A stretch of 24,509 nt of DNA from positions 1 through 24,509 of the IMG/VR virus record IMGVR_UViG_3300032233_001346; one strand, given 5' to 3'. Position numbers and translations under genes: made by a program. Numbering within the stretch: the first letter of the stretch is position 1; each line of letters opens with the position of its first letter. This DNA is from a virus (lineage: Duplodnaviria > Caudoviricetes). The notes under the pieces are model-generated. The model was not told the origin of the DNA. It saw nothing but the letters and a program-made list of their open reading frames with translations, and searched no databases. This document shows positions 7,788-17,298 of this stretch, piece by piece.

Positions 7788-8321
7788 ATGGAAAAACTTT
7801 TTAAACAACTTAGTGATACTCAGGCAACTCTGTTTCATCTCTTCCAAAAAACTTGGATCTATCATTGGGATGTTGTAGGACCTGATTTTTATCAACTTCA
7901 TACTGTTTTCGGAAATCAGTATGAGACTATGTTTGAGGAGATTGATACTCTTACAGAACATATGAGATATTTGGGTATGAGACCCGTAAGTACTCTTACA
8001 CGAGTTGTAGAAGTATCTCATATTGATGGAGCATCAAACAGTAATCAAATGGTTGATGCTGATGGAATGGTTGCTCAGTTGTTGTCGGACAATAAAAAAA
8101 TTATTGAGATGTTGACAGATGCTTCAGAAGAAGCAGACAAACAAAAACAATATGCTACGGCAAATCTTGTCCAAAGCATAATGGAGACACATGGTAAGTT
8201 TGTTTGGATGTTAAGATCTTTTACTGAAAAGTCTCCTAAGAATGTAAAGGAAGACGTTCAGATTATTCAACCAGAAGTTGAAGAAGAGATTGTTGAAGAA
8301 GAAATTCAAACTGAAGAGTAA
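7788..8321 (+). CDS. dps: Dps-family ferritin-like protein
   Basis: HWDVVGPDFYQLH, EIDTLTEH and KFVWML motifs; Glu-rich C-terminal tail. Confidence 0.92.
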   Translation: MEKLFKQLSDTQATLFHLFQKTWIYHWDVVGPDFYQLHTVFGNQYETMFEEIDTLTEHMRYLGMRPVSTLTRVVEVSHIDGASNSNQMVDADGMVAQLLSDNKKIIEMLTDASEEADKQKQYATANLVQSIMETHGKFVWMLRSFTEKSPKNVKEDVQIIQPEVEEEIVEEEIQTEE

Positions 8322-10552: not shown

Positions 10553-10614
10553 CGCAGCGGTAGCGCGCCTGCTTTGGGAGCAGGATGTCGCAGGTTCGAT
10601 CCCTGCCACGCCGA
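10543..10614 (+). tRNA. tRNA-Pro(TGG)
   Basis: Acceptor CGGTGTG/CACGCCG, anticodon arm CCTGC-TTTGGGA-GCAGG. Confidence 0.95.
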
Positions 10615-10633
10615 CTTAAACCCCTTATCAATC

Positions 10634-10843
10634 ATGCAAAAATTTACAGTAGAAGAATTCCAATCAGACTTTGATAATCTCCTTGAACGTGTAGAGAATG
10701 GAGAGTCATTTATCATTACTAATGAAGGGAGTGAAGTTATGATGATACCTGCAAAATATTATGAATGTTCTATAGAAACAGTTAATGGCGTAGTGGATGA
10801 GGAAGTCATACGCATCCACACTGATCACGAAGAAGGTTCGTGA
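10634..10843 (+). CDS. Phd/YefM-like antitoxin (orphan)
   Basis: MQKFTVEEFQSDFDNLLERVENGESFIITNEGSEVMMIP fits the Phd N-terminal pattern; acidic tail; true start 10634 (the track start lies inside the tRNA). Confidence 0.7.
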   Translation: MQKFTVEEFQSDFDNLLERVENGESFIITNEGSEVMMIPAKYYECSIETVNGVVDEEVIRIHTDHEEGS

Positions 10844-11040: not shown

Positions 11041-11065
11041 TCAGACAGTTATCCAACTGTCTCCC

Positions 11066-11094
11066 TTGACTTCTCAAGGTTTAACCCCTATAAT
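11066..11094 (+). promoter_or_regulatory. sigma70 promoter
   Basis: TTGACT-N17-TATAAT, preceded by the palindrome AGACAGTT-ATCC-AACTGTCT. Confidence 0.75.
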
Positions 11095-11117: not shown

Positions 11118-11336
11118 ATGTCACTCACAGTTAAATTCAAAAAAGACATCAATACATTGAAGTCTGCTGCGAACAAAGAATTTTTTCTTGATGTAAAGAA
11201 TCCGAAACTTTACAAAAAAGTTCGTCGTTTTTATGAAAATGAGGGTGTAGTATTCTCCGGCGATCCTCTTGATGATTATGATATTCTCGTTGAGTATATC
11301 TATCAAGACCTTGAGAATGAAGGAGTTCTTGCTTGA
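11118..11336 (+). CDS. Cyanophage-type hypothetical protein
   Basis: 72 aa, NPKLYKKVRRFYENEGV...DDYD; directly downstream of a promoter. Confidence 0.75.
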   Translation: MSLTVKFKKDINTLKSAANKEFFLDVKNPKLYKKVRRFYENEGVVFSGDPLDDYDILVEYIYQDLENEGVLA

Positions 11337-11590
11337 TGACAACTACACTTCCCAAAGTTCTACTTGAACGTGAAGGATTTCGTTTTGTGGAAAAAGGTAT
11401 CATTGAACTCAATGGTAAACCTGATTTCCGTCTTCAAATGCAAGATCAATATACTAGAAGGTGGCATGACGTTTATCTCTTTGATAATTCTATGCAATGT
11501 TCTCTTGCAATGGAAGATATTGAGTATGCAAAATGGTTGACGGATCAACCTTGTTATATGGATCCTAATGATATTGAATATTGGGATTAA
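11336..11590 (+). CDS. Cyanophage-type hypothetical protein
   Basis: TGATG coupling; GFRFVEKGIIELNGKPDFRLQ... Confidence 0.75.
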   Translation: MTTTLPKVLLEREGFRFVEKGIIELNGKPDFRLQMQDQYTRRWHDVYLFDNSMQCSLAMEDIEYAKWLTDQPCYMDPNDIEYWD

Positions 11591-11591
11591 T

Positions 11592-11778
11592 AGTCACGGG
11601 ATGACTTAAAACTCGCCCTGGTCGGGAGCAACCCCTTCAGTCACGGAGAGACTTTAAAAGTACTGGTGGAGTCATATGACCCTCTTAAGAGTTTCCAATC
11701 TCTCCAAAGGATTGGTGGTGCGGATGGGGAAACCCCGCCTGGTTTCCAATTTCCAGTCAAAGAATTGGTGGCGTGCAT
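11592..11778 (+). ncRNA. Tandem pseudoknot ncRNA, manA/wcaG RNA-motif-like
   Basis: Four modules of about 47-50 nt, each followed by TGGT/TGGYG; compensatory changes between modules 3 and 4; lies upstream of an NAD-dependent epimerase near tRNAs, the context I recall for the Rfam wcaG/manA motifs. Confidence 0.75.
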
Positions 11779-11791
11779 GAAAGACCTAATA

Positions 11792-11818
11792 GGAGAGTTG
11801 CATAAACTCTCCTTTTTT
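11792..11818 (+). terminator. Intrinsic terminator after the ncRNA
   Basis: GGAGAGTT-GCATA-AACTCTCC followed by T6. Confidence 0.85.
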
Positions 11819-11826
11819 AGTATAAT
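11798..11826 (+). promoter_or_regulatory. sigma70 promoter for the glycan operon, embedded in the terminator
   Basis: TTGCAT-N17-TATAAT. Confidence 0.65.
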
Positions 11827-11859
11827 ATATACTATACAGATTATTCATTCTGATCATTT

Positions 11860-12915
11860 ATGAGTCAATATACTAAGACTGCACTTGTTCTCGGTGCAGG
11901 TGGCTTTATTGGAAGTCATATGGTTAAAAGACTACGTTCCGAAGGATATTGGGTACGTGGTGTGGACCTTAAGAGACCTGAGTATTCTCCCACTGAAGCG
12001 CATGAATTTATTCAGGGAGATCTTAGAGACGTAGATTTTGTTCGTCGTGTTCTTGAATTTAAAGGCGACCAAGGAAACTTCTATAATTCAGTTCCTTATC
12101 GTTATATTCAAACATTTGATGAGATCTATCAGTTTGCTGCTGATATGGGTGGTGCTGGATTTGTCTTCACTGGTGAGAATGATGCAGACATTATGCACAA
12201 TTCAGTTACAATTAATCTCAACGTTCTTGAGATGCAACGTAAAATGAATGAAGATAAAGGTGTAAATGCCACTAAGATTTTCTATTCTGGATCTGCGTGT
12301 ATGTATCCAGAGCATAATCAATTAGATCCCGATAACCCTGATTGCCGTGAAGAATCCGCTTATCCTGCTAACCCAGATTCCGAATATGGATGGGAAAAAC
12401 TTTTTTCTGAACGTCTCTATTTTGCTTATCACCGTAATTATGGTATTCCTGTACGTGTGTCTAGATACCACAATATTTTTGGTCCCGAAGGAACATGGGA
12501 AGGTGGACGTGAGAAAGCACCAGCCGCAATCTGTCGTAAGGTAGCGTATCTTCCAGAAGAGGGTGGTACGATTGAAGTTTGGGGAGACGGAAAACAAACT
12601 CGTTCATTCTTGTACATTGATGAATGTATTGAAGCAACACGAAGATTGATGGATTCCGAATTTATTGGACCAGTAAATATTGGTTCTGAAGAAATGGTTA
12701 CCATCAACCAACTTGTAGAGACCGCTGCTAAAGTTGCCAACAAACAAGTAGAAAAGAATCATATTGATGGTCCTCTTGGAGTTCGTGGACGTAACTCTAA
12801 TAATGATGTAGTTCGTAGAGAACTTGGTTGGGATTATTCTCAACCCCTTGAAGAAGGTATTCGTAAAACATACGAATGGATTAGTGAACAAATTGCAAAA
12901 GGTACTAATGGTTAG
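11860..12915 (+). CDS. GDP-mannose 3,5-epimerase-like extended SDR
   Basis: GAGGFIG; AADMGGAGF; SGSACMYP; YGWEK; RYHNIFGP; GGREKAPAAICRK, all GME-type signatures. Confidence 0.88.
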   Translation: MSQYTKTALVLGAGGFIGSHMVKRLRSEGYWVRGVDLKRPEYSPTEAHEFIQGDLRDVDFVRRVLEFKGDQGNFYNSVPYRYIQTFDEIYQFAADMGGAGFVFTGENDADIMHNSVTINLNVLEMQRKMNEDKGVNATKIFYSGSACMYPEHNQLDPDNPDCREESAYPANPDSEYGWEKLFSERLYFAYHRNYGIPVRVSRYHNIFGPEGTWEGGREKAPAAICRKVAYLPEEGGTIEVWGDGKQTRSFLYIDECIEATRRLMDSEFIGPVNIGSEEMVTINQLVETAAKVANKQVEKNHIDGPLGVRGRNSNNDVVRRELGWDYSQPLEEGIRKTYEWISEQIAKGTNG

Positions 12916-16509: not shown

Positions 16510-17298
16510 ATGAACCGTATTGATAATTATAAGGGACTTGCAGATAGAATTGTAAATTGGATTTGCGATTATGCTTCCGAATATAATATTAAATCACTTG
16601 TAGTGGGAGTTTCTGGTGGAATTGACTCCTCTGTTGTTTCCACTCTTTGTGCAAGAACTGGTCTTCCAACTTATGTGATTGGTATGCCTATTAATCAAAG
16701 AGATGAACAGGAAGCTCTTTCTGATACTCATGGAGAGTGGTTGCAAAAGAAATATACAAATGTGCGATTTATTAAAGTAGATTTAAGTTCGGTAAATGAT
16801 TTGTTCCTTGCAAATGTAAATCTTCAAGTTGGAGAAAGATTTGCGACAAATAAACTTGCACAAGCTAATACTCGTTCTCGTTTGAGAATGGTTACCTTGT
16901 ATCAAGTTGCAACAACAGTTGGTGGTATTGTTGTCGGTACTGGTAACAAGGTTGAAGATTATGGTGTAGGTTTCTATACCAAGTATGGTGATGGTGGAAT
17001 TGATATTGCACCCATTGCTGACCTCTACAAGACCGAGGTATGGGAACTTGGTAAGTATATTGGAGTGGATGAACGTATTATTGATGCACCACCAACTGAT
17101 GGTCTCTGGGATGATGGACGCACTGATGAAGACCAGATTGGTACTTCCTATGAAATGCTTGAATGGGTAATGGAAGAGGGTCTCCAAACTCCTCCAGAAC
17201 AACTCAATGAAGAAGAACTTAATGCTATTAATGTATACACCAAGTTCAACACTCAAAACAAACACAAAATGGTTTCTATTCCTACATTCAAACTATGA
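16510..17298 (+). CDS. nadE: NH3-dependent NAD+ synthetase
   Basis: GVSGGIDS, ANTRSRLRM, GTGNKVE, GFYTKYGDGG, PIADLYKTEV, PTDGLW; no glutaminase domain. Confidence 0.95.
   Translation: MNRIDNYKGLADRIVNWICDYASEYNIKSLVVGVSGGIDSSVVSTLCARTGLPTYVIGMPINQRDEQEALSDTHGEWLQKKYTNVRFIKVDLSSVNDLFLANVNLQVGERFATNKLAQANTRSRLRMVTLYQVATTVGGIVVGTGNKVEDYGVGFYTKYGDGGIDIAPIADLYKTEVWELGKYIGVDERIIDAPPTDGLWDDGRTDEDQIGTSYEMLEWVMEEGLQTPPEQLNEEELNAINVYTKFNTQNKHKMVSIPTFKL

Follow-up and report, generated by a model that had tools for sequence, protein, structure and literature searches.

A T4-like cyanophage carries, just upstream of its LPS/sugar operon, an array of four tandem pseudoknots, and after each of these comes a tail (UGG plus 8 nt) whose sequence reverse-complements the 3' end of a cyanobacterial tRNA. 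Judging from this complementarity, tRNA 3' ends are very probably the partners of the tails, and we favour, with moderate confidence, the view that the array would act during infection as a multivalent trap for host tRNAs reading GC codons (Pro, Ala, Leu and Arg). With slightly less confidence, we propose that the modules would be programmable RNA clamps, in which a pseudoknot cap and an anti-acceptor tail capture chosen host isoacceptors at the CCA end. Such clamps would provide a protein-free host shut-off based on codon bias, shifting translation towards phage genes, and would join the T-boxes as another natural class of regulatory RNA that binds tRNA; the captured tRNAs would be the ligand of the orphan RNA family wcaG.

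The array and its setting

The window, by which we mean the whole 24.5-kb stretch of DNA analysed, is a fragment of a T4-like cyanophage genome (its virus record is estimated to be 12% complete) with tail genes, 12 tRNA genes and an LPS/sugar operon. A ferritin/Dps-like gene lies within the tRNA cluster (7788-8321), a Phd/YefM-like antitoxin gene without a toxin partner at 10574-10843, and a NAD synthase gene within the sugar operon (16510-17298). The features in and around the array are the following.

11066..11094, + strand: sigma70-type promoter (TTGACT-17-TATAAT, 11/12; putative start site) of a two-gene unit whose 3' end is likely formed by the array
11118..11336, + strand: small conserved cyanophage gene, PHROG 552, no assigned function
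11333..11590, + strand: small conserved cyanophage gene, PHROG 481, whose stop codon abuts module 1
11592..11618, + strand: module 1 pseudoknot; 4-bp stem, 7-nt loop, loop-tail pairs 6-24 and 9-23
11619..11634, + strand: tail 1, UGG + UCGGGA; complement of the tRNA-Pro(CGG) 3' end, 9 bp (by-hand comparison); partly in a short hairpin
11639..11663, + strand: module 2 pseudoknot; 4-bp stem, 7-nt loop, loop-tail pair 6-22
11664..11682, + strand: tail 2, UGG + UGGAGUCA; complement of the tRNA-Ala(GGC) 3' end, 11 bp including one G-U (by-hand comparison); bulged hairpin
11689..11715, + strand: module 3 pseudoknot, unit 1 of Rfam wcaG, with a strong stem 2 and a weaker stem 1
11716..11738, + strand: tail 3, UGG + UGCGGAUGGGGA; complement of the tRNA-Leu(CAG) 3' end, 15 bp (by-hand comparison); bulged hairpin
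11739..11768, + strand: module 4 pseudoknot, the second unit of Rfam wcaG
11769..11779, + strand: tail 4, UGG + CGUGCAUG; 10/11 pairs to the 3' ends of tRNA-Arg(CCG) and of tRNA-Arg(ACG) (by-hand comparison)
11791..11818, + strand: intrinsic terminator; 9-bp stem, U tract
11798..11826, + strand: sugar-operon promoter, -35 within the terminator hairpin (TTGCAT 11798-11803, 17 nt, TATAAT 11821-11826; putative start near 11833)
11860..12915, + strand: NAD-dependent epimerase/dehydratase, gene 1 of the LPS/sugar operon; a neighbour, likely not a target

The module letters quoted in the initial annotation are all found where it had placed them. A consensus promoter scan gave no promoter belonging to the array itself; as the array also starts 1 nt past the stop codon of the two-gene unit, it is a 3' UTR unless processed. 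Contigs of one RNA run (X1, share 0.04) cover the array in relatives, these contigs carrying no level, strand or ends. A homologue of the PHROG 481 gene ends at most 150 nt upstream of the array at 42 of 103 loci, and a Pfam scan assigned no family to the two upstream proteins or to the small proteins inserted in other arrays. More generally, 78 of 151 arrays begin at -12 to 15 nt from a stop codon and, for those next to a tRNA, 7 of 7 begin at -2 to 6 nt from its end, as would be expected if the array were a nuclease roadblock or a processing signal stabilising small mRNAs of the phage and precursors of tRNAs. However, tight gene packing is usual in phage genomes, and such a signal would not need four distinct conserved tails, so that this explanation appears extremely improbable.

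Homologous loci comprised 120 viral loci fetched by the wcaG linker pattern (out of about 2100 stretches), 120 fetched by the module-2 pattern (out of about 970), 5 phage records and 4 MAG contigs; 211 of the 249, with G+C at most 0.48, were kept. They were de-duplicated by sequence only, are related to each other, and include some contigs present in both sets. The relatives of the region include 124 phage records, namely 112 named Synechococcus phage, 10 Cyanophage and 2 Prochlorococcus phage Syn1, the recorded host of the last being Synechococcus. In small samples, one or two modules were found in 4 of 5 further Synechococcus phages, and all 3 Prochlorococcus phages examined lack the array at this position, with one lone match inside a P-SSM7 gene. 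The core pattern was absent from the cyanobacterial genomes among 185,579 species genomes searched, where it matched only 4 contigs, all from non-cyanobacterial MAGs. Three of these score as wcaG and are probably mis-binned phage DNA and the fourth is a chance match; a host origin of the array was rejected.

A module finder tuned on these shapes and run on both strands of the window returned exactly four modules, the number of H-type pseudoknots first proposed; of 1000 shuffles of the region, 994 gave none and 6 gave one. For module 4, 79 distinct segments following the linker were collected without any requirement to pair, and the 54 of the window's length were aligned with the window; the 25 excluded were length variants, false anchors and seven apparent knots without UGG. 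Across 51-54 distinct equal-length homologues, 561 of 561 cells are paired, 9 of the 11 pairs change on both sides, and controls with slid registers pair at 33-54%. Covariation across homologues, whose absence the initial annotation had named as grounds for abandoning its reading, is thus present. For module 3 (49 of 120 segments, equal length), stem 2 is paired in 328 of 343 cells. The compensatory changes claimed for modules 3 and 4 hold in these stems but less well in stem 1 of module 3, which is weaker in a fixed register (117 of 147 cells paired, against 89-108 when slid). In the module-1 type, with its stem 1-4/12-15, 98% of cells are paired, and loop-tail pairs 6-24 (CG/UA) and 9-23 (GC/AU/UA) are each kept in 31 of 31 cases; the module-2 type keeps its loop-tail pair 6-22 in 61 of 66. 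Both module types are pseudoknots with compensatory changes, the short stem of module 3 being the least secure. Minimum free energy folding of the whole region, by a program unable to form pseudoknots, was not unusual (z -0.97).

Several related structures were seen. Seven loci (L003, L021, L071, L084, L119, L123 and L235) have, in the segment after the linker hairpin, terminal pseudoknots that keep the pairing and lack UGG and tail, which counts against the tRNA trap favoured here. A fifth module type, missed by the finder, consists of an AGUC/GACU stem, a 10-nt loop and then AAACUAGA-UGGU with a variable tail; it heads the array in Syn9, S-RIM2, ACG-2014d, S-RIM12 and S-RIM4, and lies approximately at L734:3893-3930, L735:5115-5150, L737:4553-4585, L738:4520-4555 and L003:1430-1462. 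In ACG-2014f, the only module bears another tail (UGGUGCGCCGG) and stands before a terminator (L736:4446-4500). CsrA-type binding sites are characterised by GGA in loops; this candidate was dropped, as loops such as UCGGUAA contain no GGA.

Complementarity of the tails to tRNA 3' ends

For the picocyanobacterium Cyanobium gracile PCC 6307, the supplement of PMC5733544 gives 44 tRNA genes, with which the window tails were compared by hand; this strain and Synechococcus WH8102 and WH5701, with tRNA lists taken from the literature, serve as stand-ins for the host. Each tail had one best amino-acid family among the 44 genes. Tail 1 pairs with Pro(CGG) over 9 bp, and the common Pro allele UGGUCGGGAUG over 11. 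Between tail 2 and Ala(GGC) there are 11 bp, one of them G-U, the next best tRNA reaching 5/8. Tail 3 forms 15 Watson-Crick bp with Leu(CAG), 11 bp with Leu(GAG) and 10/11 with Gly(GCC), and tail 4 pairs at 10/11 with both Arg(CCG) and Arg(ACG). Variant tails, UCGGUGA and UGGAUCCA, also occur. The reverse primers for tRNAs of Synechococcus WH8102 and WH5701 in Table S3 of PMC11726456 yield the same Ala, Arg(CCG) and Gly ends. The Arg(CCG) gene of these strains recurs in 114 of 115 metagenome loci fetched by its primers, and the Leu and Pro ends matching the tails recur in Anabaena.

The match is also specific to amino-acid classes. On viral contigs, tRNAs with the tail-1 end are Pro in 98 of 105 cases, those with the tail-3 end Leu in 68 of 78, and those with tail-4 ends Arg in 33 of 45. 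As judged on 636 bystander tRNAs, only 3 of the 1024 five-mers are complementary to half or more of the tRNAs in an amino-acid class; the Pro and Ala tail families account for two, and the third (Gly) is one letter off tail 3. In the loci fetched by the module-2 pattern, which were not selected on tail letters, the Ala, Leu and Arg tails are 87-100% conserved up to position 11 except at two biallelic Arg sites, position 11 corresponding to CCA, N73 and 7 bp of the acceptor strand. Beyond it, conservation falls to about 50% at position 12 for Ala and Arg and fades by 14 for Leu; Pro tails decay after position 9. By four independent tests on the sequences, namely the five-mer count, this extent of conservation and, given below, the wobble positions and the rarity of repeated tails, the complementarity between tails and tRNAs is not due to chance.

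The same data bear on the suggestion, made in the initial annotation, that the array is a protein sponge or a mimic of the ToxI type, a reading that can be widened to an acceptor-stem decoy for tRNA-acting toxins or synthetases. The ToxI repeats of type III toxin-antitoxin systems, and phage pseudo-ToxI, are tandem H-type pseudoknots of about 30-40 nt; the repeats are near-identical and bind a protein. The tandem pseudoknots, the likeness of the tail hairpins to acceptor stems and the antitoxin gene nearby would suit such a role. However, near-identical repeats are not what we find: the units differ, each with a distinct tRNA-complementary tail, and a tail family is repeated in only 2 of 150 multi-module arrays among the matches listed, against 74 expected. 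A decoy of the acceptor stem should copy its 5' strand and carry CCA on the 3' side, whereas here UGG stands on the 5' side and, at the G-U wobbles of the tRNAs, the tails, as read from their letters, are complementary to the 3' strand instead of repeating the 5' strand. In the Ala tails, A rather than G stands opposite U70 (position 3) in 100 of 104 cases, the base being mostly unpaired in the tail's own hairpin (P 0.19); in the Arg tails, A stands opposite U71 in 60 and G in 1. As each tail differs and complements a tRNA 3' end, the likely partner is an RNA, and we consider a protein partner very unlikely. A search for ToxN in the 24.5-kb fragment gave no match, but its control matched nowhere either.

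Tail order is permuted (Pro-Ala-Leu-Arg 18 times, Ala-Pro-Leu-Arg 12 times, two other orders 3 times each), and pseudoknot types are exchangeable between tails. The Arg tails have two alleles (58 and 56 modules), either of which mispairs at a single position with Arg(CCG) and at a single position with Arg(ACG), the perfectly complementary Arg allele occurring in only 2 of 122 modules among the matches listed. Perfect complements are thus mostly avoided, as also with the G-U of the Ala tail, a pattern that suits reversible sensing as well as trapping. Cofolding, which leaves tertiary structure aside, predicted favourable strand exchange (-9 to -14 kcal/mol) with the matched Leu, Pro(CGG) and Arg tRNAs.

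Terminator, promoters and neighbouring genes

As the initial annotation had noted, a terminator follows the array and the downstream operon has its own promoter; both prove to be conserved. Among 106 distinct array ends, a terminator is present at 89 (shuffles, 0-2) and a sigma70 promoter at 77 (shuffles, 6-15), in 74 cases with 17-nt spacing; the -35 lies inside the terminator hairpin at 74. The promoter at 11798-11826 had been missed by the consensus scan, yet it belongs to this conserved set. TTGCAT, the commonest -35 at array ends (40 of 77), is possibly a phage early-promoter variant, and in the window both promoters (11060-11094 and 11791-11826) have their -35 inside or overlapping a hairpin.

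This arrangement is relevant to the idea, put forward for wcaG in 2010, of a metabolite riboswitch for the sugar operon. Of 61 downstream ORFs found, 56 were scanned and 43 of these are sugar-metabolism genes, and modules 1 and 2 are compact and aptamer-like. However, the terminator that holds the next promoter cuts the array off from the epimerase; neither an expression platform in the array loci nor an antiterminator co-adapted with the terminator arm (89 arms, cognate against foreign) was found; P-SSM2 has the same gene order into the epimerase without an array; a gene is inserted between modules in 51 split gaps; and complementarity to tRNAs would be left unexplained. We therefore regard a metabolite riboswitch as highly unlikely, and the layout agrees with the earlier proposal of a multivalent RNA rather than a cis-regulator.

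A second form of cis regulation would keep the binding to tRNAs: in a T-box-like sensor, uncharged tRNA would open the tail hairpin and thereby affect translation of the next gene, mRNA stability or read-through. The tails do lie in bulged hairpins that could be switched, their imperfect complementarity suggests reversible binding, and the tail allele of the window's module 1, which contains GGGAG, precedes an ATG by 17-24 nt in 22 of its 29 occurrences. However, in pairing with the array upstream of them, cognate terminator arms do not surpass foreign arms (mean rank 0.60, with 3 of 89 in the best tenth), the downstream gene has a promoter of its own at most array ends, about 10 of 106 arrays run, by eye, directly into a tRNA gene, and no ORF follows modules 1-3 in the window. 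Such a sensor is, in our judgement, rather unlikely. Taken together, the sequence tests argue against the cis regulation proposed for wcaG, at least here.

The inserted genes fall into several kinds. In split arrays (L009:1587-1817, - strand, and about 25 others), a hydrophobic protein of roughly 75 aa, not assigned to a Pfam family, begins about 20 nt past the UGG of a Pro tail. Because the window's tail allele precedes an ATG in most of its occurrences, the window genome may have lost this gene. Another small inserted protein (MTPYELRFEIFKQA...), with an (AC)n-rich leader, lies between modules 2 and 3 (L192:1525-1778, L036, L050, L068, L186), and a CTAAATA site resembling a late promoter is present in a further insert family (11 of 51 gaps).

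Proposed mode of action and related RNAs

Four covarying pseudoknots are each followed by UGG; UGG plus the next base complements the NCCA of a tRNA, and the next 5-11 nt complement the 3' strand of its acceptor stem. Starting from these features, we propose that the RNA would form the 3' end of a transcript made early from the two-gene unit, would end at the terminator, and may be trimmed free. UGGY would serve as a toehold on NCCA, from which the tail would invade the acceptor stem while opening its own bulged hairpin; by analogy with T-boxes, stem 2 of the pseudoknot would stack on A76 and favour uncharged tRNA. Loss of the isoacceptors for CCG, GCC, CUG/CUC and CGG/CGC would then slow translation of GC-rich host mRNAs, and would leave synthetases and amino acids to the isoacceptors encoded by the phage.

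Codon usage is consistent with such a role. The targeted codons CGG, CGC, CCG and CUG hold ranks 1-4 and GCC rank 6 in host-over-phage bias, although these ratios are inflated, since the host-like set (11 high-GC metagenome loci) was filtered for GC-rich third positions; AGC, the fifth, has no module. In the published WH8102/Syn9 table (PMC11726456), the host bias calculated by hand is 9.2 for CGG, 8.2 for CCG, 7.0 for GCC and 5.4 for CGC, but only 1.7 for CUG. The phage's own Pro, Leu and Arg tRNA ends pair with the tails at 4/8, and the Pro(UGG) genes beside arrays carry the end needed by the main Pro tail in only 1 of 45 cases among the matches listed. The phage itself often uses GCU, CUU and CGU (134, 180 and 75 of 6329 codons), which the targeted host tRNAs can read, so that capture may be partial; partial capture would fit the mismatches built into the tails.

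The same complementarity could also serve as a sink for uncharged tRNA that mutes the stringent response, or a defence sensing stalled translation, rather than starving host codons. Anti-defence neighbours would suit this (a Phd/YefM-like antitoxin gene within the fetched flank at 57 of 137 array loci), as would tRNA genes near the array at 82 of 103. However, such a sink offers no explanation why only isoacceptors for host-biased codons are covered, and phage translation would presumably starve AT-codon tRNAs first; we judge it to be unlikely. A trap directed at host GC-codon tRNAs accounts for the choice of tails, and it is this reading that we compare with known RNAs.

The initial annotation had likened the region to both manA and wcaG. 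The second likeness is correct: 11687-11782 is Rfam wcaG (RF01761; 97.3 bits against a gathering threshold of 42, model 1-98). The 2010 alignment already draws the module-4 pseudoknot and contains rows whose first unit is of the module-1/2 type (PMC2864571, Weinberg et al. 2010). The covarying pseudoknot of the second unit is present here as well, together with a cyanophage carrier and, by position only, polysaccharide genes downstream. However, the wcaG model spans two of the four modules and describes a probable cis-regulator or riboswitch, whereas here it forms the end of a permutable, terminator-ended array with predicted tRNA-end partners.

The manA model (RF01745), in contrast, had no covariance-model match in the window even at E 10, although manA is likewise a cyanophage orphan RNA in tRNA clusters and, in S-CREM1, lies 370 nt after wcaG. 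It forms RNA cages in vitro (bioRxiv 10.64898/2026.07.01.735769). The S-CREM1 manA RNA (L002:2069-2283) abuts tRNA-Leu and tRNA-Asn and contains UGGUGCCCGCU, which pairs, by hand, at 8/8 (two G-U) with the Cyanobium Leu(UAG) end and at 7/8 with Val(UAC); manA may share the tRNA-end trick.

In the T-box discriminator, UGGN beside a helix pairs with tRNA NCCA, stacks on A76 and sterically rejects charged tRNA (PMC7583486). The array resembles it in its letters and its predicted working, having UGGN complementary to tRNA NCCA beside a helix, but it lacks Stem I, anticodon reading and an antiterminator and has no Rfam T-box match; its specificity would come from invasion of the acceptor stem, with four specificities per RNA, and it is borne by phages. 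The array is thus not a T-box but would, by prediction, work like a stripped T-box discriminator or a primer-binding site. Primer-binding sites of retroviruses and LTR retrotransposons consist of UGG and then 8-18 nt complementary to a tRNA 3' end, and open the acceptor stem. In the array, however, a pseudoknot sits where the primer would be extended, and no reverse transcriptase was found among 30 window proteins scanned. RNA C and RNA D of T4, also non-coding, without assigned role and from the tRNA region of a T4-like phage, were rejected as homologues, as the sole finder match in that locus lies outside both.

No described wcaG ligand, and no phage RNA capturing tRNA ends, was found in the literature covered, in which subscription journals and some supplements are thinly represented. 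Half of the array sequence belongs to a catalogued family; the novelty would lie in the predicted mode of action. A riboswitch candidate without a ligand since 2010, wcaG continues to be cited as regulating polysaccharide genes in cis; the tails name its predicted partners down to the isoacceptor. If the proposal is true, the modules would provide a short, retargetable scaffold for binding tRNAs, and their action would add to what is known of tRNAs carried by phages and of resistance through the loss of host tRNAs (PMC11726456). For AT-rich phages, the array would then be an RNA-only way to exploit the codon gap with GC-rich Synechococcus.
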